Virus record (IMG/VR): IMGVR_UViG_3300027896_005002
Span: 251,488 to 315,487 of that record
Length of the DNA: 64,000 nucleotides
Source: a virus
Strand: one strand, 5' to 3'
Positions within the stretch are counted from its first letter, which is position 1. Each line of letters opens with the position of its first letter. The position numbers and the translations under genes are program-made. The notes beneath the pieces are model-generated. The model had not been told where the DNA came from. It worked only from the letters and a program-made list of their open reading frames with translations, and made no database searches. Below, in pieces: positions 25,847 through 61,292 of the stretch.

Positions 25847-26404
25847 TTACTTCTTGCCAAGACCAAGATTAACATTATCATCTTTACCTTTTACATATAC
25901 ATCTTCAGTATGAGAAGATGTAATGATCTTGATCTCCAATGGTTTTTTACCGGCTAAAAACATATTCCAGGGTGCCGTAACCAGCATATTGTCATGTTGA
26001 AGTTTGACATCGGTTAATCGTTTTTGCGCCGTTAAAAATTCTGCACGATTAGACTCAATAGCATCCATAACGTCCTTGTATAACTCCGTAGCCATTGCAA
26101 TATTATGTTCATGGATGAATTTGAATATTGGTGATCCATTTGCTTCACCTTGATAACGTGCAGTCATTTCACCAAGCACAACTGTTTTGAAATCTTCCCT
26201 ATAAGCACCAAGTACTTGTACCTTTTGATCAAGAACTTTCCACGTTTTATCAAATACCTGTTTGCAGACACTTTGTTGCGCATCTCCTAAGTTGCGCAGT
26301 TTTGCTTCATTATTTACGGTAGCGAAATAAATCGCAATTAAAATGAATCCAAAGACCACGATCACGATCCCTGCCACCAAACCAATAATTTTGTTTTTGG
26401 ACAT
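25847..26404 (-). CDS. LemA-family membrane protein
   Basis: N-terminal TM (IIGLVAGIVIVVFGFILIAIYF) followed by the LemA-like layout, including the C-terminal APWNMFLAGKKP (LemA FPxNxxA..FG). Confidence 0.5.
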   Translation of the reverse strand: MSKNKIIGLVAGIVIVVFGFILIAIYFATVNNEAKLRNLGDAQQSVCKQVFDKTWKVLDQKVQVLGAYREDFKTVVLGEMTARYQGEANGSPIFKFIHEHNIAMATELYKDVMDAIESNRAEFLTAQKRLTDVKLQHDNMLVTAPWNMFLAGKKPLEIKIITSSHTEDVYVKGKDDNVNLGLGKK

Positions 26405-29396: not shown

Positions 29397-29681
29397 TTAC
29401 AGAAGAGCTGTTTGACACATACAATAACCACCATTAAAATATCTATTACATTCCGGACAATAATGCCATGAATATACAGTTGTAAGTTGTAAATTTATAT
29501 CATCCAAATTACCTTCAAATAATTCATTTTTGTCTTTACCAAAAATCGTAAGATTATATTCTTTTTTGACTTTTTGATAACCTAAAGCAAAAGTCTGGTT
29601 AGTAGCACTACAAATATAATGGATTCTTAAAAAAAGTCTATCAAGAGGTTTATTAACATCAAAAATATCAGAATGACTCAT
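29397..29681 (-). CDS. Hypothetical protein
   Basis: 94 aa with a C-terminal CPECN...CMC zinc ribbon. Confidence 0.3.
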   Translation of the reverse strand: MSHSDIFDVNKPLDRLFLRIHYICSATNQTFALGYQKVKKEYNLTIFGKDKNELFEGNLDDINLQLTTVYSWHYCPECNRYFNGGYCMCQTALL

Positions 29682-30016
29682 CGTTCAACAAATAATATAG
29701 CATCATGAGGTAATATTACATAATCTTTACCATTAATTTGTACATCTATAGCATGATCTTTTAAATAAATTGCAATATCGTTTTCTTTTACTTGCAATGG
29801 AACATATTGAGGAGCTTGTTCATGTGGTTTCCACTCTTCATCTGTTTCTGAAATTTTAAAATCAGGAATTGCATACCCAGGACCAATATTGACAACAAAG
29901 CCTTTTGCAATATCTTTTTTAGCAGTCTGAGGTAGTATTATGCCGCCGGCTGTGGTTTCTTCTTTAAGTGGAGCGATTAAAACGCGACATCCAATAACGA
30001 TAATGTTGTTTAACAT
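29678..30016 (-). CDS. groES: Co-chaperonin GroES (Cpn10; T4 gp31 analogue)
   Basis: RVLIAPLKEETTAGGIILPQTAKKDIAKGFVVNIGPGY...VKENDIAIY...DYVILPHDAILFV matches the GroES pattern along its whole length. Confidence 0.8.
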   Translation of the reverse strand: MLNNIIVIGCRVLIAPLKEETTAGGIILPQTAKKDIAKGFVVNIGPGYAIPDFKISETDEEWKPHEQAPQYVPLQVKENDIAIYLKDHAIDVQINGKDYVILPHDAILFVER

Positions 30017-31982: not shown

Positions 31983-32417
31983 TTATTTCAAAAGATATTG
32001 TAAAATTTTATCACGATTTTTCAAATACATTCTGAATTCCTCTAATTTTATTTCTTGCATTGTTTTTGCACTTTGAACATAATCAATTAATGTGTCTATA
32101 TGATCTGGTGGTTCAGTTATTCCTATATTCATTAAATCATCTTGGCCTTCTGTTGTATTTAAATAATCTACTATTTGTTGAAGTAACTTTTTACTTTTAT
32201 CTGTTAAAAATATCTTATCACTGTTCTTATCATGACGTTTTCTACCAGTTATATAAGCCCATTGATTATATCCACCAGGTCCTTTACAAATTTTCTTATA
32301 TAATCCTGATCGTATTCGAGCCCAGAATTTTTCTCTAATTAATAAAGACACTTCATCAAATTCCTCTTCCTCATATTTGTACATCCAATAATAATCGGAC
32401 ACATTATAACTCAACAC
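31983..32417 (-). CDS. Hypothetical protein
   Basis: 144 aa ORF. Confidence 0.3.
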   Translation of the reverse strand: MLSYNVSDYYWMYKYEEEEFDEVSLLIREKFWARIRSGLYKKICKGPGGYNQWAYITGRKRHDKNSDKIFLTDKSKKLLQQIVDYLNTTEGQDDLMNIGITEPPDHIDTLIDYVQSAKTMQEIKLEEFRMYLKNRDKILQYLLK

Positions 32418-33564
32418 TAAAAGTAATGTCTTTTAGTTTTAGTTTTTCAACCAAATATTTTTCAAGATATTTTCGAGATTTCATTTTTTCTAAATTATCA
32501 AAAAATTCTAGTATTGTTTTAACTTTGTTATCATATAATTGAAACATATAAGATGGATTTGCACAATCTTTTACAGCCAATGCAAATTCTTTTCGACTTT
32601 TTGAAAAATATTCTTTAAATTGTTCTGTTTCAGAATTAATTCTTTGAATATAAGCATCATATTTAGCTTTAACATCCATTACTATTTCAGTAAATTCACT
32701 AAAATAACCCAAAAATTCATCAATTTGATTATCAATTACCAAACTAATTACTGATCTTAAGCTACTACCTACTTTACTTTTTATGTGATGAATTGCAACA
32801 TATGATGGATTTTTAACTTTAACTCTTTTAAAACTGATGTTATCATCATCATTTTTTGTATAATCAACAGCAACAAATCCTTCATCTAAAGCTGCAAGAC
32901 TTTTGACTAAATCCAATAATTGATTTTTGTCAGCAAATGTTTCTATTTTTGGTAAATCAATACCAAGTTCTATTGACCACTCTTTTAAGTTTTTTAATGG
33001 AAGTTCTTCCCATGTAATAATCCGTCGCATCATTAATAAATGAAGTTGTCTATCTTTATAAATAGTAACAACTCTATTTTCTGGTGATGTTATTTCAAAA
33101 CAATATATAAATGACTTACTAATATTTTTCCAAAAATTTGGATATTTCTCTGTTGTTTTATAAAATAGATCTTTAAAAGTAATAGATGTTAGACCTACAC
33201 ATGATTCATTTTCAATCATGCCTCTTGTTGACATTAACCATTTATCATTGTAATTAAAGACAGATATTAATGATCCATCTAATTTTTCAAGGCCTACAGC
33301 TTTTGTAAAATCAAATGTATCTGTTATTCGAGGAACTTCACTATAATTAAAAAATCGTCGAAATGGATATGATATAATTCTCCAAGAATTTTTTTCTAGA
33401 ACTAATCCTCGACACTCTAAAACAATTAGATGATCTTTAGGCGAATCAATTTGATTATAATTTAAGACGACTAAGGACTCAAATTCGCTATAATCAACGC
33501 CAAATTCAATTTTAAGATTTTCTAAAGATTTTTCATTTAAATATTGTTGTACATTTAATAGCAT
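32404..33564 (-). CDS. RNA ligase 1 (T4 RnlA-like)
   Basis: Motif I VGLEKLDGSLISVF matches T4 Rnl1 ...KEDGSLVSTY (lysine adenylation site); length 386 aa is close to T4 Rnl1. Confidence 0.65.
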   Translation of the reverse strand: MLLNVQQYLNEKSLENLKIEFGVDYSEFESLVVLNYNQIDSPKDHLIVLECRGLVLEKNSWRIISYPFRRFFNYSEVPRITDTFDFTKAVGLEKLDGSLISVFNYNDKWLMSTRGMIENESCVGLTSITFKDLFYKTTEKYPNFWKNISKSFIYCFEITSPENRVVTIYKDRQLHLLMMRRIITWEELPLKNLKEWSIELGIDLPKIETFADKNQLLDLVKSLAALDEGFVAVDYTKNDDDNISFKRVKVKNPSYVAIHHIKSKVGSSLRSVISLVIDNQIDEFLGYFSEFTEIVMDVKAKYDAYIQRINSETEQFKEYFSKSRKEFALAVKDCANPSYMFQLYDNKVKTILEFFDNLEKMKSRKYLEKYLVEKLKLKDITFSVEL

Positions 33565-33608
33565 AGGTTTTATTATATGCTATTTTTTACAAGTGTTTTA
33601 TAAAATAA

Positions 33609-33642
33609 CTAAGGCTTGTTAAAAAAATCTAACAAGCCTTAG
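33609..33642 (-). terminator. Rho-independent terminator (13-bp perfect stem) downstream of ORF 33684..33947
   Basis: ctaaggcttgtta ... taacaagccttag inverted repeat with an 8-nt loop, then a T-rich run on the minus strand. Confidence 0.55.
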
Positions 33643-33683
33643 CAGTAGTCACTCATTTAAAAAATTCATTGCACAGCGTTGAA

Positions 33684-33947
33684 TTAAGTAAATTGTAAGA
33701 TAGATATTTTAGCTAGAGTGAGATTTGGATATCCATTTTGTAATCCAGTATCCAAAATAGCTTGTTTAATTTGAGTATGCCATTGGCTAGGAGAATTATC
33801 TGGGTCAAGTGAGATATTTGATCCAATATTATGCGTTTCACCTGCTGTATCTGTGTACCATGCATCCATTGAAACCAATATATTACCTGGTATCTGAGGA
33901 TCAGGTATGTCTTGAGTATACTTAAAACAAGTTGCTCTTTGTGTCAT
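33684..33947 (-). CDS. Hypothetical protein (higher-GC island)
   Basis: 87 aa ORF; composition clearly richer in G and C than the surroundings. Confidence 0.3.
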   Translation of the reverse strand: MTQRATCFKYTQDIPDPQIPGNILVSMDAWYTDTAGETHNIGSNISLDPDNSPSQWHTQIKQAILDTGLQNGYPNLTLAKISILQFT

Positions 33948-33960
33948 AAATTACTCCTTT

Positions 33961-35178
33961 CTATATTTCAGCATCCACTGTGCAATGAACTTTTATTTCT
34001 TGCCCTACTGACCAAGCTGCTAGACCTGTACAGTTAATATCTATACCGTCTGCAGATGGGTTCGCTGCTGCTGTAGCTGTTGCATCTGTAGCAGCAGGTA
34101 CGTTTCTCATAAAAGCATTAGCAGCACTGGGATTGTAGAAAGTAGTCGTGACTGGTGCAACTCTCATTTGCACTGGAAATTTCCATTGCATTGTTGAAGA
34201 AGTAGTAACAGCAGCAGCAATTGCAACCATTCCCCTTAAAGCGCCTGCAACACCACCACTTTGAGCAGGAGCAATAAGTGGAGGAAACGTCTTTTGATAA
34301 AATCTAAGACACCTTATAAGTTGTAATGATTGACTTCTAGGATACCAATCCCTAATCTCATAACCTGGATATAGACCGACCTCAGATATATTTAGTTCAT
34401 CATTATTAAGAGGTTGTCCATTAGTCCATATTGTTGGTATAATATTTTTACAAGTTGAAGGTATAATAAAAGTAGCTGAATATCGCACCCAGTTTGTTGT
34501 CAGAACACAAGTCATACCACTACCTACTAATGTTCCACCATCAACTAAAACTGGCGTGATATAAGTTAAGTTTGCACCAGCAGTCAAAGTAGGATCAGTT
34601 CCTACTGCACCCCACGCACTAATGTAACCTGCAGCACCAGAAGGCACTGTATCAACAGTTCCTCCACTGCCAAGAGCAACAATGCCCAGACGAACAGTCA
34701 TCGAAGATGCAACTGAATATTTCATCTTACATTGAAATCTAACAGTAAGACCTCTAAGATGTGCCATGTCATTTGTCTCAATTACCTGTCCGATAGCAAA
34801 CTTACCTGTATTCGTTATTTTCTTAAATTTTCCATATTGCCTAGTTGCTAAATTTGTCTCTGGTGTAGTCATTGTATCAACTACTTGAAAGTTCACACTT
34901 GCATTTTCATTTGATATCCACCAACGATCAGGACCATAAACTCTACCACCTACACTTGAATAAGTCGTCAATGTCGTTGGCACTTGTCGTTGAGCATAAT
35001 CAAATTCACCATTTGTGATGACGTTAGCATCTCTCAATCCAACAGGTGTAAGCGTGTCAATTTCACCAGAATCAAGTATTACCTTTAATCTACTATCAGC
35101 AGTATCATAATATATTGCTGCTTTATTTGTAGATGGTGTTCCTGGTGTTGCTGTCTTGTTAAGTACTAAAAAACTCAT
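33961..35178 (-). CDS. Putative fibrous / structural-like protein (higher-GC island), function unknown
   Basis: 405 aa, Thr/Ser/Gly/Ala-rich; N-terminus MSFLVLNKTATPGTPST...IYYDTADSRLKV is reminiscent of fibre-type proteins. Unassigned. Confidence 0.3.
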   Translation of the reverse strand: MSFLVLNKTATPGTPSTNKAAIYYDTADSRLKVILDSGEIDTLTPVGLRDANVITNGEFDYAQRQVPTTLTTYSSVGGRVYGPDRWWISNENASVNFQVVDTMTTPETNLATRQYGKFKKITNTGKFAIGQVIETNDMAHLRGLTVRFQCKMKYSVASSMTVRLGIVALGSGGTVDTVPSGAAGYISAWGAVGTDPTLTAGANLTYITPVLVDGGTLVGSGMTCVLTTNWVRYSATFIIPSTCKNIIPTIWTNGQPLNNDELNISEVGLYPGYEIRDWYPRSQSLQLIRCLRFYQKTFPPLIAPAQSGGVAGALRGMVAIAAAVTTSSTMQWKFPVQMRVAPVTTTFYNPSAANAFMRNVPAATDATATAAANPSADGIDINCTGLAAWSVGQEIKVHCTVDAEI

Positions 35179-35196
35179 AATTTAATTTCTCCTTTC

Positions 35197-35619
35197 TTAT
35201 CCTATTTCAAAATAACTTGCAAGTCCAATTTCCGTAGTAAATGTTGCTACAATTTCATATAAAAACGGCATATATAATGACTGCCCTGCTGCTATAGTCA
35301 CATTTGCTGCTGGAGCGACAGTATTCGTAGTTATTACTCCAATTGATCCTGAATAGCCAGATGTACCTATACCTGAATATCCAGATATGCCAGAATATCC
35401 TGATAAACCAACTCCAACTGCTCCTGAATAACCTGATGTACCTACTCCAGAATATCCTGATGTTCCTACACCTGAATATCCACTATAACCCGATAAACCT
35501 GAATAACCGCTTGTCCCTATTTTTCCGGAATAACCAGACTGTCCTGCTGCTGCCCCGGAATAACCTGAACGACCTGACCATCCACTTTTTCCTCTTGGCG
35601 GTTGGTTAAAAACATCCAT
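35197..35619 (-). CDS. Gly/Ser/Tyr repeat protein (SGYSG repeats)
   Basis: About 15 copies of (T/L/I)SGYSG in the N-terminal two-thirds, with a non-repetitive C-terminus. Confidence 0.4.
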   Translation of the reverse strand: MDVFNQPPRGKSGWSGRSGYSGAAAGQSGYSGKIGTSGYSGLSGYSGYSGVGTSGYSGVGTSGYSGAVGVGLSGYSGISGYSGIGTSGYSGSIGVITTNTVAPAANVTIAAGQSLYMPFLYEIVATFTTEIGLASYFEIG

Positions 35620-35631
35620 ATATATCTCCTA

Positions 35632-36231
35632 TTAAGCAACTAAAAGATTGGCGTAAGAATTCCAGGAATTTGTAATAATTGATTGAACAACAGAATCGGC
35701 GACAAGAGCTCCATTGGCTTGAACGGTTGCATTCAAAGCTAACGCAGACATGAATTCCATAACTACGACCATAATATCCGGCAAAGCGAATGCAATCAAC
35801 TTCATTCTGTTGGCATGATTCGTAGTTCCAGGATCTTCCAAGAACACGGCAGCAGCTTGAGTTATAACCGCAGTCAAACATTTTCTTTGAAGGACTTCGG
35901 AATTGTACAAATCCGCAATCACAATATAATTGGAAGTAACAATTGTAACATCTTTATCCATATCATTTACAGGCTCGTCCTGAACATAATATGCTTTTTC
36001 CCCGCCTGTACCTTCCCCATATACTTTGAAGGTTATTTCTTTGGTTTGCGAAATCGGCTTCTTATTTTGTTCTGAATATCCGACTTCCAAAACCATCATG
36101 CTATAAGACTTAGTATTGGTGAGGATAGTATCATCCACAGAAGAAACAAGAACAGGAGTTCCTACATCTTTATACATTGCTGTTATGTCTGCAATTATTT
36201 GTGCCTTAGTCATATCCGCCATATTCTCCAC
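35632..36231 (-). CDS. Hypothetical protein (higher-GC island)
   Basis: 199 aa ORF. Confidence 0.3.
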   Translation of the reverse strand: MENMADMTKAQIIADITAMYKDVGTPVLVSSVDDTILTNTKSYSMMVLEVGYSEQNKKPISQTKEITFKVYGEGTGGEKAYYVQDEPVNDMDKDVTIVTSNYIVIADLYNSEVLQRKCLTAVITQAAAVFLEDPGTTNHANRMKLIAFALPDIMVVVMEFMSALALNATVQANGALVADSVVQSIITNSWNSYANLLVA

Positions 36232-36245
36232 CTTTCCCTTAAATT

Positions 36246-36833
36246 CTAACCTTCTGTAAAATGCTGTTTTTGATTTAGTAAATGTCTCTGTGTAGTTATA
36301 TTTTTAAATCGTCTTACTCTTGGTTTTCGAGGCATTCTCATCAATTCTTTATGTTTGCGTTTAAAATTTTGTTTTCCTGTCAATTGTTTCTTAGATTCAG
36401 GATGTTCATCCAAATATTTTTGTTGTCGATAAAGAGGCATTCTAAACCATTTCTTGCGTTGTACAGCCTTAGCTTTTGCTAAACGTATAAATTGTTCATC
36501 AATTATTGCAGCATGGACCATATTTTCTCGTTGTTTTCTAAATCGATCCCATAAATCTCGTTTTTCTTTTAATCTGAATTCTGCTTCTTCTAAACTTCTT
36601 GCTGTAAAAGTCGTTTCAGTAACAAAATCATTAAACATGAATGTCTTCATATCTGGCCAATAATCTACATATTGAATACCCAATTTTTCAGCAACATTTT
36701 CACCAACTTGATCCAGTCGTTTTTTTGATTTTGGATGATCTGCTAAATATTTCTCTTGCTGCAAACTAGTCATATTTTCAAACAACATTGCTTTTTTAAC
36801 AAATTCAATTTGCAATGATGAAAAATGCTTCAT
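36246..36833 (-). CDS. Basic protein with repeated xQxKYLxxHP(K/E)SKK motif; divergent paralogue of the next gene
   Basis: N-terminus MKHFSSLQIEFVKKA...QQEKYLADHPKSKKRL, and a second copy RQQKYLDEHPESKKQL near the C-terminus. Confidence 0.4.
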   Translation of the reverse strand: MKHFSSLQIEFVKKAMLFENMTSLQQEKYLADHPKSKKRLDQVGENVAEKLGIQYVDYWPDMKTFMFNDFVTETTFTARSLEEAEFRLKEKRDLWDRFRKQRENMVHAAIIDEQFIRLAKAKAVQRKKWFRMPLYRQQKYLDEHPESKKQLTGKQNFKRKHKELMRMPRKPRVRRFKNITTQRHLLNQKQHFTEG

Positions 36834-36911
36834 TCCTCCTCCTCTTTTTATAATAGATTTATAAAAGAATCTACAATAAATAGTTTGATTATGAACAAAA
36901 AGGAGTATCTA

Positions 36912-37742
36912 ATGAAACATATAGCTACAATTCAATCTGAATTTTTAAAGCATGCTCGCAAATGGGATGAAAAATCGCTCACAGAACAAAAACGATATCT
37001 TCGCAAGCATCCAAAAACAAAACGTCGAGTCACAGCAAAACCAGAAACTTTAGATTTTGATAAATGGATTCTTGACAAACAATTCATGAACTTGCAAACA
37101 AATCAAAAAACTCCATTTGATAAACTCCCAGAAGAACAGCAAAAATCTATTCGTGATCATTTTACTCAAGAAAAAAAACACTTTGAACAAGAACAAGATG
37201 ATCCAACAGATGATATAGAAGATGGAGATGAGGAAAAAACTAAGTTGAAAAAATTTACAATTATGGGTGGTCCTGGTGAAGGTGGTAGTGTAAGAGCAGA
37301 AAATGCTCAAGACGCAATGAAAAAATACTTAATGAAATATGAAGAATATAGTGAAGATAGAGCAAATAAAGAATTAAATGTTGAAAAAGGTGAATTTGAT
37401 CCTAAAGCTAATGCAACAATGTTTGGTAATTTTCAAGTTAAGGAAGAAACAAAACCAATATCAGAACGTCAAGTACGACGACTTGGTAGAAAAATTAGAA
37501 GAGATATTAAAGGCGCCGGTAAAGAACAAGACGGAATAGAACTTGATATTGCAAAAAATGTTATAAATTCAAATCCTCAATTAAAAAAATATTTCTTGGA
37601 TCAAAATATAGCAGAAGATAAAATTGCAGAAGCTTTTGCAGATTATTTAGTCAAACCTAAGAAAAAAGAAAAAGAACGCACTCAAACAGATCAATTTGGA
37701 CGAAAAATTCCATTAGTTGGACCACAAATGCCTACTAACTAA
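36912..37742 (+). CDS. Paralogue of 36246..36833 on the opposite strand (shares the MKHxxxxQxEF...KxYLxxHPKxKxR N-terminus)
   Basis: Starts MKHIATIQSEFLKHARKWDEKSLTEQKRYLRKHPKTKRRV, preceded by SD AAGGAG 8 nt upstream of ATG 36912 (track ORF 36825 lacks a plausible start). Acidic and Lys-rich thereafter. Confidence 0.45.
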   Translation: MKHIATIQSEFLKHARKWDEKSLTEQKRYLRKHPKTKRRVTAKPETLDFDKWILDKQFMNLQTNQKTPFDKLPEEQQKSIRDHFTQEKKHFEQEQDDPTDDIEDGDEEKTKLKKFTIMGGPGEGGSVRAENAQDAMKKYLMKYEEYSEDRANKELNVEKGEFDPKANATMFGNFQVKEETKPISERQVRRLGRKIRRDIKGAGKEQDGIELDIAKNVINSNPQLKKYFLDQNIAEDKIAEAFADYLVKPKKKEKERTQTDQFGRKIPLVGPQMPTN

Positions 37743-38126: not shown

Positions 38127-38129
38127 ATC

Positions 38130-38758: not shown

Positions 38759-39550
38759 TTAAGTAAAGAATGAATTTGAAGTACCTACAACGGTTTGGCT
38801 TTTCCGAATGATTGACTGACTGACGAGACCCATTGATTCTCGAATATCGTGAGCAGAGCTACCGGATGTTTTAGCATTAGGAAATCCCATTGCCTTTGCA
38901 TCCGCATCACCACTTCCGAATCCGACATAGACAAAGTAGAACATTTCCGTTTTGTGGCAATCATCTACAAGCACTTTAACATCACTTGCTTTAAAATCTT
39001 GTGAATCATTGTCCTGGCCATCCGTCATTACTGCAATAATGCATTTTGTGCGAATTCCATTATCATTCAACGATTTTGCATAAACACGCATACCAGTAAT
39101 TGCACTGACAATTGTGTCAAACAATCGCGTTGAATCACCATTGGCAATATATTGACTGCCAATTTTGCCGATGTCGCCGACCTTTTTGAAACCGTATAAA
39201 ATGTCTTCCTTTGTGGCAAACGTCCTGGTACTTACAAGCATTGAATCTGCTTGTTTTGATTTCCTCATTGCATCGATGACCAATTCGTCAAATGAATCAC
39301 GAACCGTTAATTCATTGCCTTTCATTGAAAATGACGCATCCAATATAAGAGATGCAATTGTTACTGTGTCTGTCACCAGATCTTCAGCACCAACGCCCGT
39401 GCAACCTATTATATTGGTGTCATCCAAACTGTTAATCATCACATTTCCAGCCAATGAATTAATTGGATTGACAGCAGATGCACTTGCACTCTGAATAAGG
39501 TTTTGTATTGTAGATAAGTCTACTACCGGATTATTTTGGCTTCCAGCCAT
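38759..39550 (-). CDS. von Willebrand factor A (vWA) domain protein (TerY-like)
   Basis: MIDAS motif LILDASFSMKG (DxSxS) and downstream AVMTDGQDND (TDG). Visibly higher GC than neighbours. Confidence 0.65.
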   Translation of the reverse strand: MAGSQNNPVVDLSTIQNLIQSASASAVNPINSLAGNVMINSLDDTNIIGCTGVGAEDLVTDTVTIASLILDASFSMKGNELTVRDSFDELVIDAMRKSKQADSMLVSTRTFATKEDILYGFKKVGDIGKIGSQYIANGDSTRLFDTIVSAITGMRVYAKSLNDNGIRTKCIIAVMTDGQDNDSQDFKASDVKVLVDDCHKTEMFYFVYVGFGSGDADAKAMGFPNAKTSGSSAHDIRESMGLVSQSIIRKSQTVVGTSNSFFT

Positions 39551-39571: not shown

Positions 39572-40528
39572 TTAAAACTGAAAATCCGTGCTTTTCATAA
39601 TGTTCATTCCGGCCTTTTTGAATTTTTTGAATTCATTTTGTGTGATGGCTTCAAAATCCACTAGAGGATGTTTAACCGAACTCATACAATCCTCGAAAAT
39701 GAATACCTTTTTCAAAACATCCGGATCTTTTACGACAACGGCAAAGTAGTCGTAGATTTGCAATTCAGTTTCCAACACGCAATGGCTCTTTGCCTGGCCC
39801 ATGATGATGACCTTGTCGTGTTTCATCAACAGATTCAAGAAATCCGTATTGAATCCGCCTTGTTTGTGCTTTGCAATCGGTACTTCGGGCTTCAGAATAC
39901 CGTACATTTCTGATTGTGGAATGAGACCTTTTTGCAAGAAGTTGAGTTGGGATTTTCTTGCAAAAGCATGGAACGCAAGAATTTCAAACAGAGAAGGATC
40001 CATTGCATTGCCGGGCGTTCCAAGCATTGTATGATAAGGCCACAACATCAGTTTCTTTTGGGAATTTCTTTCCAATGTTGCTTCATACTCGATACTGCCT
40101 ACCGGATCGATGATTGCCTGAAAATCACCTTTATCCATTAACTTTTTCTCAAGTATGGAATAAATATCCGGTTTTTGCTGTTTCAGTGTCCTCCACCATG
40201 ACCGGTAGAAGATCTGGAAAATAAGATGGGTGTCCAAAGAAGCGAAGATCGTCGTTATTCTATCCATATTTGTCAGGATAAAAGTAATTGCTCGACGAAT
40301 ATCTTCTTCAGCTCCATCAACATATAGTGATCCATCCTTGTGACAAAAATCGATTTGCATATCGATGATCATCAATGCAATCTTCTCTTTGTCTGTTACC
40401 GATGCCGGAATGGACATTGCATCGGCTTCCTGTTCAACAATTCCGACTCCAGCCGGATTTTTGTACAACCGAGGTAGAAACAGTGTTCCTACTTTTGCTG
40501 GATCATAAAACGACGGCTTAAATGTCAT
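39572..40528 (-). CDS. Isochorismatase-family cysteine hydrolase (candidate nicotinamidase PncA-like)
   Basis: ALMIIDMQIDFC...GSLYVDGAE (catalytic Asp context) and IMGQAKSHCVLETE (catalytic Cys context GxxxxxCVxxT). Confidence 0.6.
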   Translation of the reverse strand: MTFKPSFYDPAKVGTLFLPRLYKNPAGVGIVEQEADAMSIPASVTDKEKIALMIIDMQIDFCHKDGSLYVDGAEEDIRRAITFILTNMDRITTIFASLDTHLIFQIFYRSWWRTLKQQKPDIYSILEKKLMDKGDFQAIIDPVGSIEYEATLERNSQKKLMLWPYHTMLGTPGNAMDPSLFEILAFHAFARKSQLNFLQKGLIPQSEMYGILKPEVPIAKHKQGGFNTDFLNLLMKHDKVIIMGQAKSHCVLETELQIYDYFAVVVKDPDVLKKVFIFEDCMSSVKHPLVDFEAITQNEFKKFKKAGMNIMKSTDFQF

Positions 40529-40579: not shown

Positions 40580-42439
40580 TCAACTTAATTCTAAGTAAAT
40601 AATTTTATTTGTTAAAATAGATAAAATTCCTTGTGTGTATAACATCAACTGACTTGAATCATTTACATAGCTAGCAGTCGATGCTTTTACTGATACATTA
40701 CCATGCTTTTCAATAGCAATACCTGAATCAGTAGGATGAATTAAATTAGATCCTGCAAACGTTTTTCCATAAATATTAGACAATAATTCTGAACTTATTG
40801 ATTCTTCAGATTTTGTTTCCAATATTTTTCCCTTATCATCGATAATATGCCAATGAGAATATGTCCGACCATTATGTATATTCTTCCGTAATAAAAGAAC
40901 ACTATTAACAGAAGTAATTACATCCATATCTATAACCTGACCTGGTAAATCCGGCAACTTAATCTCATAACGAACAGTTGGAGTAAAAATAAAAAATTGA
41001 TATTTTTCAAATATTCGATAAAAACCAAAATTAAGATATTTTCCTGCTTGAATCCACGTTTGATTCTCTATTGATGACATTATATCTGTTTCAATGAAAT
41101 TGTTTCCACCAACAATTGAACCTCTCATTATTGTATTATTAGTCAATCTATAAAAACCATCATTATCACAAGTAATTACTGGTTCATTCCTGTACAACAT
41201 TGTTGATGTACTACCAACATGCTTAATGCTTTTATTGCTAACATCAAATATTAATACTTTAGTGTTTTGAGCAACTACAAGATAATGTAGTAAAAAGTAT
41301 TCATATCTGAAATCCTTTTGAAATCCTTGCCACAAAGTAATTGTGTTTTCAGAATTTTTTGTAACTAATGATAAATTAGTATTTTTGCCATCATAACTTA
41401 TAACAACAATTGTATCATTAATCACTTTAGTAAATAGAATTGTTCCTTCAATTTGAAATAATGTAGAAGCCACACATTGCTCTTTTCCAACCTGTTTTGT
41501 CATTTTTACTTTTGACAAATTTGCAGTAATTTGAGGTGTAACTTGCATACACTGCGGACAGGTACCTCTAGAATTATGATAAAATGTTTTACAAGCGCTA
41601 CATTCAATGAATGAATTTTGCAATGATTGAAGTAAAGTAATGGGTAAATTTGGTCGTTGACCATGACAGAAAATTTCTGAAAAATATGTTAAAAGTTCAT
41701 CACTTATAGTTTCAGGTTTTTTTCCCATTACAGGATAAGTAACACTCTTGTCAAAAACCCAGACATTATTTTGTGCTCGTGTAAACAATGTTTTATGTTG
41801 TTGTTGAATTCCACCATAAGGATGAACAAAGAATAAACTTTTGAAAAGTATTACAGCAAAAGAATACCAATCTGTTTGCTGTGTAAACATTGGCTTTTTT
41901 GTCAAATCAACACCATATAAACTAGGATCAATAAAATCTTCTGTTCCAACTATACATGGATAACTGTCAAATTGAAATGAATCAACATCTATATAAATCG
42001 GTACATAAGTAGTAATATCGAATAATATATTAAGATCGTTAAAATCACCAACAATTATACCTAAATCATGAATTGAATCCAAAGTTGTTTTTGTTTGAGT
42101 AAAACAATCCACAACATGATTAGTAGTTATTTGCTGTACGCTTCGAAATTTTGTAACCGATAAATTTCTAATATCTTTGCAATTATCTGCAATACCCATT
42201 GCAAAACCAATAACTTTATTTCTATTATCATATAAATTGTCGATCGGCGCCATTACATTGACTGGAAAAGCAAATCTATGTGATAAAAAATCCTGTAGTT
42301 TTTTTGCTCTTTCCGCTGTAGGTTGATGATAAATTTTAAACGCAACATTACCATGAACTACAATGTTTGCCTCACCACCACTACCGATACTCTTTTTAGG
42401 ATCAATAGTAATTGGTGTACCTTGATAAATTACTTGCAT
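40580..42439 (-). CDS. Eukaryotic-like Ser/Thr protein kinase domain with large C-terminal zinc-ribbon and repeat region
   Basis: Gly-rich loop IGSGGEANIV, Lys in VAFKIY, catalytic loop IHDLGIIVGDFNDLNILF (HxDxxxxN), DFG-like YIDVDSF; C-terminal CSACK...CPQC. Confidence 0.65.
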   Translation of the reverse strand: MQVIYQGTPITIDPKKSIGSGGEANIVVHGNVAFKIYHQPTAERAKKLQDFLSHRFAFPVNVMAPIDNLYDNRNKVIGFAMGIADNCKDIRNLSVTKFRSVQQITTNHVVDCFTQTKTTLDSIHDLGIIVGDFNDLNILFDITTYVPIYIDVDSFQFDSYPCIVGTEDFIDPSLYGVDLTKKPMFTQQTDWYSFAVILFKSLFFVHPYGGIQQQHKTLFTRAQNNVWVFDKSVTYPVMGKKPETISDELLTYFSEIFCHGQRPNLPITLLQSLQNSFIECSACKTFYHNSRGTCPQCMQVTPQITANLSKVKMTKQVGKEQCVASTLFQIEGTILFTKVINDTIVVISYDGKNTNLSLVTKNSENTITLWQGFQKDFRYEYFLLHYLVVAQNTKVLIFDVSNKSIKHVGSTSTMLYRNEPVITCDNDGFYRLTNNTIMRGSIVGGNNFIETDIMSSIENQTWIQAGKYLNFGFYRIFEKYQFFIFTPTVRYEIKLPDLPGQVIDMDVITSVNSVLLLRKNIHNGRTYSHWHIIDDKGKILETKSEESISSELLSNIYGKTFAGSNLIHPTDSGIAIEKHGNVSVKASTASYVNDSSQLMLYTQGILSILTNKIIYLELS

Positions 42440-43261
42440 TTAATTGACCTCTATATTTGTAAGCTTTTCTGCACAACTTGCACAAACATTACATATTTCC
42501 TTTGCATCATTTGTTAATAGACTATTACATGTTGCACATAATGTTTCAAAAATCACACAGCACACATCATCATTAAATAACTTTTCATTTTGCCATACAT
42601 TAATTCTACGTTGTAATTGTCGCCCTTTAGTACCATACAAATCACTTATATGATACTTATCATGATTTATAAGTGGTGTCAGTCCGTCAGAACCGATAAT
42701 TAATCTTTTGACGTTTACAGTTAAGTAATTTCTTATTTCTATACCACTTAATTTTGTTCTGGATTGTGTAAGATATTTATCAGGTATATTTCCATATGCA
42801 AGATAATGAGGACTATTATCTTGATCAAATTTGATGACATCATTATTGATAACTATTACACCATCACCACAACGACCTATAAGAGTATTTATATCATCAA
42901 TAATAAAAAAGATGAACGTTGCAAGTAGATTATTTTTAATAAAATCAACTTGTTCTGATATATCAAAAATCATTAAATTTCTTAGGAATTCATCAATATA
43001 AGTATAAACACTATGCGTTAAAATTGCAGCTAAATCTGATTTAATTTGTTGTTGCGCATTAAGTTGTTGTAATTTTTTTAAAATAAATGTTCCTAACAAA
43101 TTAGCTCCAATTTCAGAATTTGTTCCTTCTGAACAACCATCACAAATAATACCATAAATAGTATTATTTGCTGTAGCTATTTTGCAAAAATCCTGCAAAT
43201 TTTTTCTTTCAAAAATATGATCATGACCAATATGAATTGCACTATTTAAAGAAAAAATCAT
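42440..43261 (-). CDS. PP2C-family Ser/Thr protein phosphatase
   Basis: ICDGCSEGTNSEIGANL (PP2C DGxGG...G..AS region) and IIGSDGLTPLI (PP2C xxSDGL motif). Start placed at the internal Met MIFSLNS (43261) because the longer track ORF overlaps the upstream gene by 95 nt. Confidence 0.6.
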   Translation of the reverse strand: MIFSLNSAIHIGHDHIFERKNLQDFCKIATANNTIYGIICDGCSEGTNSEIGANLLGTFILKKLQQLNAQQQIKSDLAAILTHSVYTYIDEFLRNLMIFDISEQVDFIKNNLLATFIFFIIDDINTLIGRCGDGVIVINNDVIKFDQDNSPHYLAYGNIPDKYLTQSRTKLSGIEIRNYLTVNVKRLIIGSDGLTPLINHDKYHISDLYGTKGRQLQRRINVWQNEKLFNDDVCCVIFETLCATCNSLLTNDAKEICNVCASCAEKLTNIEVN

Positions 43262-43322
43262 TATATTCTCCGGGTTAAAACGAAAAGTCCAGATTTTATA
43301 CTGGACTTTTCTTAAAAATGGA

Positions 43323-44129
43323 TTATGCTGCTTTTGCTTTTGCTTTATCCTTCGCCATATATCGTTGCATCCTAACGGCAACATCCTTAATACCATAAAT
43401 GTCCAATTGAAAATCATTCAATAATTCAACTGGATCGATGCCTAAAATGGCAACAGTATAAAGTATTGATGGCATAATAGTGCCGATGTCTTTTATGTAA
43501 AAATCAATATTGTTTTGGCCGTAAAATTGACGTTTAATGTCTTCTTCCATTTTACCAGTTCGCATAAAAGCCAAAGAACACCACGCCACATGATTTCCAT
43601 GAAGAATCGACATCATTTCTATCGAATTAACGTTCTTTATGGCAACTATCAACATGTCAATGACATCCTGTTCGGAATATAGAATGCTTGACTTATTGCA
43701 AAGAAAAGCACTTATACTTTTTGCCAATGACATTGTTGTTGCCTGATTACTTACTTTTGCACCATGCGGCAATTCATCGAATGTGACAAAATTGGGATTA
43801 AACACTTTGTCTGCGGGATTTGCATCGGTTGAAATTCCTAATTGTAATCTTGCTTCAGGCGACAGGTCCTTTACATAAACTGCATTTTGTTCTTTGCCAG
43901 TAAATGTATAGGATTTCATTCCTGCACCTGCATAATCAATTTTGAGAGTTTTTCCTACCGGAAAAAAACCCTTAAATGGATTATGTAGATCATCCATTTT
44001 AGCTTTTTGTCCTTCATACCAAATATCATGAGGACAACGAGCCGGAATATCAACCGTCTCTAACAAATACAAATAAACTGCACTACCACTGCCAGGTATA
44101 GTGGTAGGTTTATCAATCGGATACCTCAT
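43323..44129 (-). CDS. Hypothetical protein adjacent to phosphatase
   Basis: 268 aa, Lys/Ala-rich C-terminal tail (KDKAKAKAA); no family recognised. Confidence 0.3.
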   Translation of the reverse strand: MRYPIDKPTTIPGSGSAVYLYLLETVDIPARCPHDIWYEGQKAKMDDLHNPFKGFFPVGKTLKIDYAGAGMKSYTFTGKEQNAVYVKDLSPEARLQLGISTDANPADKVFNPNFVTFDELPHGAKVSNQATTMSLAKSISAFLCNKSSILYSEQDVIDMLIVAIKNVNSIEMMSILHGNHVAWCSLAFMRTGKMEEDIKRQFYGQNNIDFYIKDIGTIMPSILYTVAILGIDPVELLNDFQLDIYGIKDVAVRMQRYMAKDKAKAKAA

Positions 44130-44147: not shown

Positions 44148-44816
44148 CTACTTTATGATTTCACCTGTTTTGTAAGACCAAAACAATATGTCTAAGTGGT
44201 CAATATTTATATCAATTTGATTTGCAAAGTTCATCATACGTCGCTCAATCTCAATGTATTCTTTACCATTTCTTGGCTTTGAAACTTTGACTTTAAATAA
44301 ATTTAACATAGAAATGATATGTTTATCTAAAATAGCAAAGCCTTGATATCCTACATTTCGTAAAAAATGACTACTTTCTTTAAAACCTATTCCTAAAATG
44401 TTTAATTTAAGAAATTCACGAAGAGCAAATTGATCATTAATGATTTCAAATATTCGGAATAAATTTAATCCAAAACTACGTTGAAGATAATCTCTAGATT
44501 CAATTATATATTTTGCTCTTACGTTTGGAAATCGATGGTTATGTTTTAATTTATTTTTGATGGTTTCTTCATTATCGGTTATAATAGTGTCACCGAGAAT
44601 ATCAATACATCTTAGCGCCATTTTTGCACTGGCATTTGCGGTAAGAATACAAAAAACTAATTCTTTGAAAAGTGCTAACCTATCGCCACTAGAACCAATT
44701 GCTTGGAATTCACTTAGTCGATGTTCAATTTGAGGCTGGATAAGATTATAATAATCTTTTAGACTACTTATAGAATCAATTACTTTTGAATTATCAACTT
44801 TTATAATGTCGATCAC
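44148..44816 (-). CDS. HhH-GPD DNA glycosylase, Ogg2-like (8-oxoguanine DNA glycosylase / AP lyase)
   Basis: ELVFCILTANASAK and ILGIGFKESSHFLRNVGYQGFAILDKHI match the Ogg2 signature (GxGxKxASHFLRNxGxxDxAIxDRHI) with the catalytic Lys and Asp. Confidence 0.55.
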   Translation of the reverse strand: MIDIIKVDNSKVIDSISSLKDYYNLIQPQIEHRLSEFQAIGSSGDRLALFKELVFCILTANASAKMALRCIDILGDTIITDNEETIKNKLKHNHRFPNVRAKYIIESRDYLQRSFGLNLFRIFEIINDQFALREFLKLNILGIGFKESSHFLRNVGYQGFAILDKHIISMLNLFKVKVSKPRNGKEYIEIERRMMNFANQIDINIDHLDILFWSYKTGEIIK

Positions 44817-45622
44817 AACAAATTTGTAACTTCTCTAACAAAATGTTGAAAATCAGATCGTTCTCTGATTTTAGGATCCCAAGCCATGCCCATTTCCTTA
44901 AGATCATATTGCTTGGTAATTGTTGCCCCTTCTTTATCTGGTTCTTTAGCCAATAACCAAACTGTATCTGCAATAGCCATTGCACTTTCAAGATCATGAC
45001 TAACCAAAATCAATGTATTATATTCGTTTAACACGGAAATCTTGAGTAATAATTCAATCACTTTGTCTTTCATCAATGTATCTAAACCAGAAAACGGCTC
45101 ATCCAAAAGAATGAATTTATTATCCGTCAGAATTTGCTGAATAATGCTTACGCGTTGTTTTTGTCCGCCCGAAAGTTGTGCAGGATATTTATTTAATTGT
45201 TCTGAAAGACCAAAATCAGTAGCATATTTACGTATTATAGAATCAGCAGTTGTACTATCGTATTTTTTTCCACAATGAGACAATCCTCTTTTGAGATTGT
45301 TGTAAATTGTTCTGTGATCAAAAAGTATATAATTTTGTGGAATAATACCCACTTCGCCTGGAGTAACTAAATGCTGATCTTCTGTTATAAGAACGCGACC
45401 TGTTGTTGGCCTCATTAATCCAGAAAGAATTTTAAATAATTGAGTTTTTCCCAAACCACTGCGACCAACAAGAGCAACGACTTGTCCTTGATCAACATTG
45501 GCTCGAACCACATCCCTAATTTCAAAATTGATGTCACGGAGAATTTGACGACCCGTATATTGAAGGCTAACATCTTTTGCCGACAACAGAACATTTTTTA
45601 ATTGGTAATCTATTTTATTCAT
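44813..45622 (-). CDS. ABC transporter ATP-binding protein
   Basis: Walker A GRSGLGKTQ, ABC signature LSGGQKQRV, Walker B ILLDEPFSGLD. Start placed at Met 45622 (ATGA overlap with the permease stop) instead of the track start 45670. Confidence 0.8.
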   Translation of the reverse strand: MNKIDYQLKNVLLSAKDVSLQYTGRQILRDINFEIRDVVRANVDQGQVVALVGRSGLGKTQLFKILSGLMRPTTGRVLITEDQHLVTPGEVGIIPQNYILFDHRTIYNNLKRGLSHCGKKYDSTTADSIIRKYATDFGLSEQLNKYPAQLSGGQKQRVSIIQQILTDNKFILLDEPFSGLDTLMKDKVIELLLKISVLNEYNTLILVSHDLESAMAIADTVWLLAKEPDKEGATITKQYDLKEMGMAWDPKIRERSDFQHFVREVTNLL

Positions 45623-46488
45623 TTGTTCACCTGTAATGTTGAATAAAGAAATAAACAACGACGTAACCATCTTAAACTTATGTCAATTAAAACACCAAAA
45701 AAGAATATAATCATAAGAACCGCAAACACTCTTGGTAAATTCAAAATCTTATTGGCCTTTATGATCATTGTGCCTAAACCACCTTCTGCCATACTTAAAC
45801 CTTCAACCATTGTAATCATTAACCAAGATATTGCAAAGTTTTGTCGAATGACTTCAACAACCATATCAAGTTGTCCCAAAATAATTACTTCATATAATGT
45901 TTCATATTTACCAAAGCGAAGTGTTTTACATAAATCATATTGTTGATTGTTAATTTGTGCCAAAATTGATGTTAATGAAGTAATAAAAAATGGTACAATA
46001 CCAAAAATCAAAAGACTGATTTTTAATTGACTCGTATCTTTTGACATCAAAGTAAATAGGAATATTAAACCATTAAGTGTTAAATATCGACATTGAGTCA
46101 TAAAATTTGTAATTGGTCGAATTATAGGAATGACTGATGCATATGTAAATATTAATGCAATTACCATTGAATAAAGCATTGCTTTAATTGTTAGCATCAA
46201 ACTGCTAAACAAATTATCAATGAAGCCTTGTTCAGTGACAATTGCAGCAATATTCTGAGCCACAATAAATGGTCCAGGTATTAAACTTTCTTTGCCGCAA
46301 ATTAAATGCCAACAAAGAAAAGCTAATATTACTTCAAAAACAATAACAATAGTTTTTGCTCGTTTTGGAAGTGTCGCAAAAGGTTCAAACATTGGAATTT
46401 TCATTTTTATTTTTCCCTTAAAAAAGAAAGACTTGGAAAATGTAAAGAGATCAACCACGCCAGTAGCCAAGCCTCTAAACATCTCCAA
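45619..46488 (-). CDS. ABC transporter permease
   Basis: 289 aa with multiple hydrophobic helices, directly upstream of the ATPase and downstream of the binding protein. Confidence 0.6.
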   Translation of the reverse strand: MEMFRGLATGVVDLFTFSKSFFFKGKIKMKIPMFEPFATLPKRAKTIVIVFEVILAFLCWHLICGKESLIPGPFIVAQNIAAIVTEQGFIDNLFSSLMLTIKAMLYSMVIALIFTYASVIPIIRPITNFMTQCRYLTLNGLIFLFTLMSKDTSQLKISLLIFGIVPFFITSLTSILAQINNQQYDLCKTLRFGKYETLYEVIILGQLDMVVEVIRQNFAISWLMITMVEGLSMAEGGLGTMIIKANKILNLPRVFAVLMIIFFFGVLIDISLRWLRRCLFLYSTLQVNK

Positions 46489-46498
46489 GTCCTATTAA

Positions 46499-48262
46499 TT
46501 AATTACCAAGGACAATTTCTACTCGACGATTCTTTGCACGACCTGCAGCACTTGAATTATCCGCTATTGGTCTTGTATCACCAAAACCTTGAGCCTCAAG
46601 AGCTTTGGGCTTCATTCCTTTTGTTGTTAGTAAATAATCCTTTACTGCATTTGCGCGATTATCGGAAAGTTCAAGATTTTTCTCAGTATTTCCGGTATTA
46701 TCGGTATGACCATAAATACCCAACTTACAACCTTCTGCAACCATTGCAGAGTTGAATATTTCATCAAGTACTCTGTAGGATTCAGGTCTGATTTTGGAAC
46801 TTCCAACCTCAAACTGAATTTGATATGATTTTGATGAAACTTTAGTAGTGATTTGATCGGAATAATTTACGGCTAAAGCTTTTCCTTCCATTAATTCCGG
46901 ATGGTTTGCAACCACAGACATTAGGAATGATTTATCAATTACCTTGGAATAATCCGGATAGGTTGGCATTATTTCCGGATACATTTTGCTTAAAATAGTT
47001 CCAAAGGTATTGTAAACGATTTTGTATCGATCGATACCATCTTTTCCTAAGCCGAACATATTGGCAGCATCCGAAAGATTAAAAGCCATTGAACCGCCAA
47101 GATCAACTTCGAAATTTTGAACATCTTTTTGTTTCATTCCATTATAATATTTAAGCCAATATGTTGGATCCTGTTCATTATAGACCTTGGCTGATACTTT
47201 TGCCGCAAACATTTTTGCATCGCTGAAAGACCGAACTTGATCACCTGCAGTTCCCAATGCTGCAATCAAACTTTCAATATCTGATCGATGATCATTGGCA
47301 AATTTCTTGATTGTGATTGTGATGTTCGGCATTTGCGATGCATATTGTTTTGTGGAAGCAATAGTAACCAATCCACCTTTTTTGGTTGCTACATTGACAT
47401 CACCAGGTGTCCAAGTGGCAACAGCATCAACATTAACCGAAGTGTCTTTGTTTGTCTTCTTACCATTAATAACAAGTTTGCGTTTGTCTTTGATTTCCGA
47501 GATGTACTTGTTTGGAGCGTCCAGAAAATCACTGGCAGCAATAATATTAATGGCATTATAGTCATAAGTGGTTTCATCCGGATTGACTGAAAGACCATTG
47601 TCACCAGCCCATTTAAGAAGAATGTTAATATCACCGTCACGAAGAACGCCGGCAACGCATTTTCCGATAGCAGCTTTGGGATTTGTTTTCCATTCTGGAG
47701 GTCCCATAATTTTATCTTCACCATAGGATTTTCCCATTGGATAGAATCCCATCGGTTGATAGTCAGGACCGAGAGGTGCTAATTCCTTACATAAACCTTG
47801 GAAAAATGCCGGCATTCCGTCACCCATAAATGATGCAAATACAGCATTAGTTGATGGATTATTTTTGTAATCCTGTGCAAATTTAACAACATCCGCACAT
47901 GCTTTACTGCAATCATCCTGACGGATAATATTAATTGTAAGTCCAGCTTTTTCGATCAATGATCCTTTTGTTGTAACCGGACCGCCATTGGCATACATAA
48001 GAGCGAATTGCGAATTCCATGCCATGATTTTCCAATCAACTTTTACCGCACCATTACCACTTTCCTGATCTGAAGGCATTGCAAGTTTTTGTGCGTTGCC
48101 ACTGAACGATGCTTCCGGAGCATCAGGTAATGTTACCTTTCCGACGACTGCGGCAGCTTTTGCAACCTTTGGTAATTTGTCATACCATAAGGTTTTGCCA
48201 CCAAGAATGGCACCAATGACAATGATGCCCAACATTAATTGACCTCTAGCCTTGATCTTCAT
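46499..48262 (-). CDS. ABC substrate-binding protein (NMT1/SsuA/TauA-like) fused to a C-terminal OmpA/MotB peptidoglycan-binding domain
   Basis: N-terminal signal/anchor, large periplasmic domain, and C-terminal NTGNTEKNLELSDNRANAVKDYL...GFGDTRPIADNSS...RRVEIV, the OmpA-C signature. Higher GC than the flanks. Confidence 0.6.
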   Translation of the reverse strand: MKIKARGQLMLGIIVIGAILGGKTLWYDKLPKVAKAAAVVGKVTLPDAPEASFSGNAQKLAMPSDQESGNGAVKVDWKIMAWNSQFALMYANGGPVTTKGSLIEKAGLTINIIRQDDCSKACADVVKFAQDYKNNPSTNAVFASFMGDGMPAFFQGLCKELAPLGPDYQPMGFYPMGKSYGEDKIMGPPEWKTNPKAAIGKCVAGVLRDGDINILLKWAGDNGLSVNPDETTYDYNAINIIAASDFLDAPNKYISEIKDKRKLVINGKKTNKDTSVNVDAVATWTPGDVNVATKKGGLVTIASTKQYASQMPNITITIKKFANDHRSDIESLIAALGTAGDQVRSFSDAKMFAAKVSAKVYNEQDPTYWLKYYNGMKQKDVQNFEVDLGGSMAFNLSDAANMFGLGKDGIDRYKIVYNTFGTILSKMYPEIMPTYPDYSKVIDKSFLMSVVANHPELMEGKALAVNYSDQITTKVSSKSYQIQFEVGSSKIRPESYRVLDEIFNSAMVAEGCKLGIYGHTDNTGNTEKNLELSDNRANAVKDYLLTTKGMKPKALEAQGFGDTRPIADNSSAAGRAKNRRVEIVLGN

Positions 48263-48300
48263 AGAAGATCACTCCTTTCTTTAAGGTTAATGGATACCAA

Positions 48301-49305: not shown

Positions 49306-49312
49306 CCTTTCC

Positions 49313-61234: not shown

Positions 61235-61292
61235 CAGGAATTGAACCTGCGTAGGCAGTTTTGCAGACTGCCAACCACTCGGACACGCCGTC
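61226..61292 (-). tRNA. tRNA-like gene, class I shape, anticodon read as GCA (Cys); no encoded CCA
   Basis: Minus-strand GACGGCGTGTCCGAGTGGTTGGCAGTCTGCAAAACTGCCTACGCAGGTTCAATTCCTGTTGTCGTCT. T-arm GCAGG-TTCAATT-CCTGT; anticodon arm GCAGT-CUGCAAA-ACTGC (U33, A37); 7-bp acceptor with two G-U pairs. D-arm not resolved by eye. Confidence 0.5.

Follow-up and report, generated by a model that had tools for sequence, protein, structure and literature searches.

A 64,000-nt stretch of viral DNA (IMG/VR record IMGVR_UViG_3300027896_005002, positions 251,488 to 315,487; hereafter the window) carries several blocks that are richer in G and C than their flanks, among them a tail-fibre cassette at 33684–36231 (the focal block). 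An earlier sequence-only reading had named five such blocks and found them consistent with separate horizontal acquisitions. Our analysis supports four of them as real; they are, however, probably a mixed set with three causes rather than the marks of separate recent imports. In the focal block, a putatively co-transcribed fibre cassette, the raised GC content (GC) stems from the amino-acid content of the p140, p405, and p87 proteins. The second cause would be a gene-wide excess of G- and C-ending codons, carried by the genes for an HU-like protein, a cysteine hydrolase, a vWA-domain protein, the SBP-OmpA protein, p199, and a virion structural protein (vsp1383). The third concerns SBP-OmpA, which sits in a five-gene operon that was probably acquired once, long ago, from a Bacteroidota host.

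The GC of the focal block is 0.387, compared to 0.286 in its flanks, and that of the vWA and isochorismatase-like hydrolase genes (38759–40528) is 0.397, compared to 0.288; neither is equalled by any other same-size segment of the window. The HU gene reaches 0.424 and the SBP-OmpA gene 0.391, levels attained by 0.5% and 0.9% of same-size segments, respectively. Four of the five named blocks hence lie at 0.387–0.424, against flanks of ~0.29. The fifth, ORF 1591–2142, has a GC of 0.348, as high as in 15% of same-size segments, and a synonymous residual of z = 1.1; it is not a compositional island.

For each of 80 open reading frames (ORFs), the GC expected from the amino-acid sequence was computed from the window's own synonymous usage, with a leave-one-out reference, and the residual (observed minus expected GC) was also expressed as z. 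The check that the sequence-only reading had proposed, sliding-window GC with codon usage, gives a divided answer: composition is non-uniform across the window, but synonymous usage is uniform in three of the four focal ORFs. Dinucleotide and tetranucleotide distances, by which every block is atypical, were dropped as evidence of foreign origin, since amino-acid content and the DNA repeats in p140 act as confounders.

The tail-fibre cassette

The focal block comprises four close-packed minus-strand ORFs (gaps of 12–18 nt) in the order p199, p140, p405, and p87, where the sequence-only reading had seen a structural-like trio; the structural nature stands and the number does not. The strong terminator that it had placed at the edge of this trio is present, a hairpin directly after p87 with a 16-bp stem, a 4-nt loop, and a T-rich tail.

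Observed and expected GC agree in p87, p405, and p140 (residuals of −0.003, +0.002, and −0.008; z = −0.2, 0.3, and −0.7). Their GC at third codon positions (GC3) is 0.15–0.20, with a window median of 0.18, and that at second positions (GC2) is 0.41, 0.50, and 0.61, respectively, compared to a median of 0.31. Glycine, alanine, proline, threonine, and serine account for 37–59% of these proteins, compared to a background of 24%, and it is because of this richness that the extra GC lies at codon positions 1 and 2. The GC excess of p140, p405, and p87 is wholly amino-acid driven, and their codon choice is native. Unlike its three cassette partners, p199 is a true synonymous-GC outlier.

The same behaviour is seen across the p405 family. 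In homologues from genomes with a GC of 0.31, 0.38, 0.54, 0.59, and 0.63, the GC3 is 0.20, 0.28, 0.56, 0.71, and 0.81, respectively, with GC2 at 0.47–0.51 throughout, and codon usage is native at all three loci tested (the window and contigs L005 and L006). Given that GC2 stays near 0.5 in every genome and GC3 tracks the resident genome, a member of this family will always resemble a GC island when carried by an AT-rich phage.

Several lines of evidence bear on the identity of p405. Residues 45–405 match the C-terminal 310 residues of phrog_4492, a 1096-aa tail fibre (E = 4e-19), a tblastn search matched the annotated tail fibre MW202697, and the family comprises >190 full-length homologue clusters of ~400 aa. 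The AlphaFold model (predicted local distance difference test, 87.5) is mostly beta-strand, with two beta-sandwich domains resembling carbohydrate-binding modules (CBMs) and CenC. Its matches in the PDB are CBM4/16/22/61 modules, tandem ones included, and tailspikes, and those in BFVD include many annotated phage tail fibres (template modelling scores of 0.6–0.67, E down to 1e-22). In the siphovirus-like contig L006, the p405 homologue ends the tail module, which runs from the tape measure through Phage-tail_3 to two DUF2793 genes, the homologue, and then a small gene; in the window, p405 has an RNA ligase gene on one side and regulatory genes on the other. From its homology and modelled fold, p405 appears to be a distal receptor-binding tail-fibre protein with a predicted glycan-binding tip. 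A capsid protein, considered in view of the uniform ~400-aa family, was ruled out by the fold, the PHROG match, and the tail-module position.

The p140 protein consists of GYS/GXY collagen-like repeats with few interruptions, scores 25.0 bits against the Pfam Collagen family (PF01391; cutoff 27.2), and matches phrog_1806, a collagen-like minor tail protein; its coding sequence holds 24-nt DNA repeats. By sequence, it has the appearance of a short collagen-like fibre shaft. The p87 protein is a putative fibre assembly factor or tip partner. The start of p199 is placed by gene callers at an ATG at 36222, giving 196 aa. Its family is small and was seen solely on contigs of large or huge phages, the larger ones being of 314 and 497 kb (huge-phage sized), in both of which the homologue lies directly upstream of fibre genes; a fold search of the p199 model against the PDB returned nothing below E = 0.04.

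The breakdown of composition, the homologies, the synteny, and the modelled fold are direct observations; from the last three, we infer how the fibre may be built. The four genes would form a single late transcription unit making a short fibre, in which p140 trimerises via its collagen-like region and docks p405 through its C-terminal motif, p405 binds a host surface glycan, and p87 caps the tip or helps assembly; p199 may serve as an adaptor.

Two sets of neighbouring genes deserve mention here. Directly downstream of the cassette and its terminator lies a T4 Rnl1-type RNA ligase gene. For its PHROG, phrog_562, the annotation reads "RNA ligase and tail fiber attachment catalyst"; the cassette and this gene may be neighbours by chance. 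On the other side are two divergent genes whose products have a common ~40-aa N-terminal motif (…EF.K.A…Q.KYL..HPK.K+R…), found also in a gene of contig L003 (13435–14259). They appear to encode basic proteins of a small paralogous family, sited at a strand-switch point.

Parts of the cassette have relatives in very different phages. The closest p405 homologues with a readable gene neighbourhood, 75% and 61% identical, lie on contigs with a GC of 0.63 and 0.59, respectively. In contig L058, which carries the 75% identical homologue, the large protein that precedes this homologue ends in a sequence matching the last 41 aa of p140 (E = 1e-7), and the 87-aa gene that follows the homologue is 29% identical to p87 over its full length (pairwise E = 1e-5). 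It is only these three elements, the C-terminus of p140 together with p405 and p87, that move as a set. No similarity was found between p87 and the 86-aa gene after the homologue in L006, nor between p140 and the genes that follow the p199 homologues of L007 and L009; p199 is from a different lineage of modules. Judged by these homologies, the p140 C-terminus/p405/p87 module has been exchanged between phages, and its composition does not reveal the transfer.

An exchange of this kind suggests a possible, though less likely, origin for the GC of the focal block, namely that p140, p405, and p87 came from a GC-rich phage and that their third positions have since adjusted, with the amino-acid content kept as a trace of protein-level ancestry. 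The high GC of the contigs carrying the 75% and 61% identical homologues agrees with this, as does the combined glycine, alanine, arginine, and proline content of the window's p405, which is lower than in 94% of the family, as expected if it were drifting towards AT-rich codons. On the other hand, the constancy of GC2 across genomes with a GC of 0.31 to 0.63 argues for functional constraint on the beta-sandwich fibre fold, and the transfer may have run in either direction.

Genes with raised synonymous GC

Atypical synonymous usage is limited to the genes for the hydrolase (z = 12, the strongest synonymous-GC outlier of the window), SBP-OmpA (7.6), HU (7.0), vWA (6.8), vsp1383 (5.3), p199 (5.1), p268 (4.1), and the ABC ATPase (3.0). 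In these, the shift touches G- and C-ending codons alike, at fourfold and twofold sites, and the GC3 excess is even along each gene, with sharp borders at the gene ends.

The HU gene has orthologues in five related contigs, with 67–80% identity, and these are outliers too (z = 7.8, 6.7, 9.6, 2.7, and 2.4). The hydrolase and vWA genes belong to a four-gene module in the order PP2C phosphatase, Ser/Thr kinase, hydrolase, and vWA, which is kept in two related phage contigs, L003 and L004 (identities of 37, 50, 60, and 55%, respectively). The same order occurs on Chloroflexota chromosomes and on one unplaced contig labelled "Spirochaetales MAG". The hydrolase and vWA proteins are 54–61% identical to the related phage copies, whose genes again show raised residuals (hydrolase/vWA z = 5.9/3.3 in L003 and 8.5/3.5 in L004); that of the hydrolase is positive also in L019, L021, L022, and L024. 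As synonymous sites are saturated at these divergences, a leftover donor signature is unlikely for the HU, hydrolase, and vWA genes, and their GC3 excess is better read as a lasting gene property than as the remnant of a recent donor. The kinase and PP2C genes are not outliers (GC3 of 0.16–0.18). With half of the module thus at backbone composition, the GC island here matches no transfer unit.

The content of the blocks had been described in the sequence-only reading as host-like, which is borne out for SBP-OmpA; the HU and hydrolase/vWA genes are conserved within the phage clade. The SBP-OmpA gene is the third of five (p222, p334, SBP-OmpA, a BPD_transp_1 permease, and an ABC ATPase) whose order is that of a chromosomal operon of Ohtaekwangia koreensis (FUZU01000002.1; amino-acid identities of 36, 47, 69, 54, and 57%, respectively) and is collinear with many other Bacteroidota. 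At full length, SBP-OmpA itself shares 68–70% identity with proteins from Ohtaekwangia, Chryseolinea, Dawidia, and Chitinophaga; it has >2000 matches, and among the best 120, all those with an organism name are Bacteroidota. The five-gene block is present also in the huge-phage contigs L016 and L017, and in 198 of 200 neighbour-joining bootstraps, the phage-type OmpA copies fall into a single split. By homology and gene order, the operon is host-derived, from Bacteroidota, and was taken once; as the phage OmpA copies form one clade, the acquisition is old. Only two of its five genes, OmpA and the ATPase, are GC3-rich, and GC3 is therefore decoupled from transfer history.

Two further outliers lie outside the named blocks. 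Distant homologues of the vsp1383 protein (phrog_1383) occur in Lak megaphages and Tenacibaculum phages. For p268, no family match was found in any library searched, and tblastn against phage records gave no match. In L004, no p268 counterpart separates the orthologues of Ogg and PP2C, and p268 is thus the best remaining candidate in the window for a recent insertion.

From the recurrence of the excess in diverged orthologues, clear for HU, hydrolase, and vWA and weak for SBP-OmpA and p199, we infer that raised GC3 may be a maintained, gene-specific property. Its reason would most likely be expression-linked selection on codon choice or mRNA. Constraint at the protein level is known to be linked to codon optimisation (PMC3977353).

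Alternatives and points of doubt

It is improbable, in our assessment, that each GC-rich block is a separate and fairly recent import from a GC-richer host or donor whose composition it retains. Such a history would suit the enrichment of the outliers in both G- and C-ending codons, the closeness of SBP-OmpA to Bacteroidota proteins and the collinearity of its operon with a bacterial chromosome, the absence of the GC3-rich p268 in L004, the absence of the focal segment at this site in L003 and L004, and the genomes of GC 0.44–0.50 in which relatives of p199 are found. However, synonymous usage is native in all focal genes but p199, and the HU and hydrolase–vWA genes are conserved, syntenic, and GC3-rich in relatives at 54–80% amino-acid identity, where synonymous sites should be equilibrated. 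The island borders split conserved modules, enclosing two of four genes in one and two of five in the other. The phage OmpA copies form one clade, and the closest bacterial hydrolase found is 51% identical, below the 58–61% among phage copies. Direct repeats and mobility genes are lacking at the flanks: around the variable segment (31966–38758), we found no att-like direct repeats beyond chance-level matches, besides those inside the p140 coding sequence, and no mobility genes at its borders, and the tRNA genes of the window lie only at 61–63 kb. For HU, hydrolase, vWA, and p140/p405/p87, recent separate import is largely refuted.

Equally hard to credit is that the outlier GC3 arose without selection, by repeated gene conversion or replacement with GC-richer homologues of co-infecting phages or hosts or by a local mutational effect (e.g., transcription-associated bias), since, for all that the excess is even along each gene with sharp borders, does not correlate with residue conservation, and has potential exchange partners in homologues from genomes of very different GC, the phage HU, hydrolase, and OmpA each lie nearer to their counterparts in other phages than to any found in bacteria, and outlier status recurs for the same genes across several independent lineages, requiring parallel repeated replacement.

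Against the account of three causes, several points must be set. An Akashi-type test on eight genes gave, for every outlier gene covered, no enrichment of G- or C-ending codons at conserved residues (Mantel–Haenszel odds ratios of 0.7–1.3, all p > 0.17); therefore, selection for translational accuracy cannot be claimed. The shift in codons ending in G and in C alike would also be compatible with another mutational history. The composition analysis covered 64 kb of a 416-kb genome, and the synonymous reference sets in the relatives were local, with 7–29 genes each. For p199, incomplete amelioration is possible, given the GC of its homologues' genomes (0.44–0.50). Finally, directly after the vWA gene, L003 and L004 have the orthologue of p165 (window 31468–31965); as the segment 31966–38758 is missing at this matching site, it likely arrived by recombination, on which its composition is silent.

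We still consider the mixed set of causes the probable one, and the sequence-only reading to be confirmed in part as an observation and supported in part as an interpretation. Horizontal acquisition has a place in this genome, which is mosaic, with a host-derived OmpA operon and an exchanged p140 C-terminus/p405/p87 module, but GC is not the evidence for it. The phenomenon is ordinary biology with a methodological lesson: a GC "island" in an AT-rich phage can arise from amino-acid content alone, which is common in fibre proteins rich in glycine, alanine, serine, and threonine, or from a conserved gene-specific codon bias, and raw GC thus detects horizontal transfer poorly. Indeed, the best-supported mobile module here (p405, 75% identical across genomes of 31% and 63% GC) has native codons, whereas the strongest codon outliers are old residents.

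Gene neighbourhood and known systems

The 416-kb contig of which the window is part has a GC of 0.31, as does the window, in which nearly all genes lie on the minus strand. Encoded are PolX, a helicase, an RNA ligase, an NAD-dependent ligase, a Ser/Thr kinase, and a PP2C phosphatase. The source is a huge phage with a probable host among the Bacteroidota (Cytophagales/Chitinophagales-like). An identical p405 protein is present on a 415.9-kb metagenomic contig, ENA ERZ27247850 k141_2484546, and a 59.5-kb JGI contig; megablast against 50,697 phage records gave no near DNA match for 30000–42000. Single-protein scans of IMG/VR with p405, SBP-OmpA, vsp1383, and p268 returned no relatives, and those of p405, p199, and SBP-OmpA were taken from the protein database and contig look-ups; for p268 these yielded none, and for vsp1383 nothing further than its distant phage homologues. 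The features discussed are collected in Table 1.

Table 1. Positions of the features discussed, in window coordinates.
Feature	Position	Strand	Remarks
ORF 1591..2142	1591..2142	−	UvsY-like PHROG matches
DnaE-type Pol III alpha, part	4288..7269	−	
DnaE-type Pol III alpha, part	9810..11660	−	
HU-like DNA-binding protein	14915..15301	−	GC3 0.39
vsp1383, virion structural protein	25847..26404	−	GC3 0.32
Cpn10/GroES-like co-chaperonin	29678..30016	−	L001 15163–15501
T4 Rnl1-type RNA ligase	32404..33564	−	
Hairpin terminator	33608..33643	−	After p87, the last cassette gene
p87	33684..33947	−	GC 0.34, GC3 0.18
p405	33961..35178	−	GC 0.394, GC3 0.20
p140	35197..35619	−	GC 0.41, GC3 0.15
p199	35632..36231	−	First cassette gene; GC3 0.345
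Basic protein, paralogue	36246..36833	−	
Basic protein, paralogue	36825..37742	+	
vWA-domain protein	38759..39550	−	Last in four-gene module; GC3 0.33
Isochorismatase-like (nicotinamidase-like) cysteine hydrolase	39572..40528	−	GC3 0.44
Ser/Thr kinase	40580..42439	−	CxxC...CxxC zinc ribbon, long C-terminal extension; backbone composition
PP2C phosphatase	42440..43417	−	Backbone composition
p268	43323..44129	−	GC3 0.29; overlaps PP2C ORF by 95 nt
Five-gene operon	44813..49981	−	Collinear with Bacteroidota chromosomes
SBP-OmpA	46499..48262	−	In five-gene operon
Nicotinate phosphoribosyltransferase (NAPRTase)	50005..51180		
GIY-YIG/NUMOD3 homing-endonuclease-like gene	51177..51941	−	GC 0.24
Glutamine-dependent NAD synthase	52805..54412		
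NAD-dependent DNA ligase	58954..60924		
tRNA-Cys(GCA)	61225..61292	−	
tRNA-Cys(GCA)	62858..62948	−	91 nt, anticodon at position 37

Elsewhere in the window, the DnaE-type Pol III alpha is split over two ORFs with four small genes between them, and its downstream part contains an intein-like insertion (Intein_splicing, residues 347–522). The second tRNA-Cys gene may hold an insertion or intron. The strongly AT-rich GIY-YIG/NUMOD3 gene has the NAPRTase gene on one side and, on the other, a weakly radical-SAM-like gene (Pfam below cutoff), and the Cpn10/GroES-like gene was identified by a precomputed Pfam match on the source contig. The NAPRTase, NAD synthase, and NAD-dependent ligase genes, joined by the weakly nicotinamidase-like hydrolase, may form a phage-encoded Preiss–Handler NAD salvage route, as judged from sequence matches.

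The four-gene module, found on the minus strand of the window (38759–43417) and in L003, L004, L019, L024, and L033, recalls the TerY-P triad, which comprises a TerY-like vWA protein, a PP2C phosphatase, and a Ser/Thr kinase fused to a zinc ribbon (Anantharaman et al. 2012 and Gao et al. 2020, summarised in PMC10542128). As in the triad, the vWA, PP2C, and kinase with zinc ribbon (a CxxC-x11-CxxC motif after the kinase domain) lie in one conserved operon, here in phages and Chloroflexota. Unlike the triad, the window module is phage-carried and has the hydrolase between kinase and vWA, and none of its four proteins fits the PADLOC TerY-P model. In a PADLOC scan of the ten proteins from 35632 to 44129, no TerY-P match was found, the kinase had only weak PD-T4-6 matches, and the vWA, PP2C, and hydrolase had none. 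In Pfam, PP2C_2 passes its cutoff (40.3 vs. 24 bits), whereas Pkinase (31.5 vs. 31.7) and VWA (17.1 vs. 23.8) fall below theirs. It is a speculative suggestion that the vWA and hydrolase are half of an undescribed TerY-P-like system, with a phosphorylation-switched effector tied to the NAD-salvage genes of the phage (NAPRTase and NAD synthase). If so, the module could, for example, counter an NAD-depleting host defence, and the recurrently raised GC3 of hydrolase and vWA would be a sign of high or specially timed expression.

The five-gene block looks, from its gene content, like a phage-carried transporter and cell-envelope operon. It resembles the host-derived auxiliary gene clusters of huge phages in that an ABC-transporter/SBP-OmpA block collinear with a Bacteroidota operon is common to several huge-phage contigs, but differs in that a whole importer-like operon with two accessory genes is carried, not one auxiliary gene. 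Together with the candidate TerY-P-like module with its hydrolase, it is one of two huge-phage multi-gene modules that this analysis yields, alongside the Bacteroidota host prediction and a widespread, uncharacterised tail-fibre tip family.

Compositional genomic islands, as understood under the amelioration model, share with the blocks described here an elevation of 8–11 GC points above the flanks and sharp gene borders. They differ in that the synonymous sites of p87, p405, and p140 in the focal block are native (|z| < 1), that the other blocks are present in relatives, and that no tRNA, integrase, or repeat borders are found here.

The closest likeness of the cassette is to the mosaic tail-fibre or receptor-binding modules of other phages, with which it shares the PHROG tail-fibre match, the structural matches to tail fibres and CBMs, the collagen-like GXY shaft, the small downstream gene travelling with the tip, the end-of-tail-module position in other phages, and the exchange between unrelated phages. 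Unlike those modules, the window cassette lies among huge-phage replication and metabolism genes rather than in a tail module, its shaft (p140) is a separate 140-aa protein, and it is led by the huge-phage-specific p199, which has no fold match. The cassette is a new member of this well-known class, within which its own family is uncharacterised.

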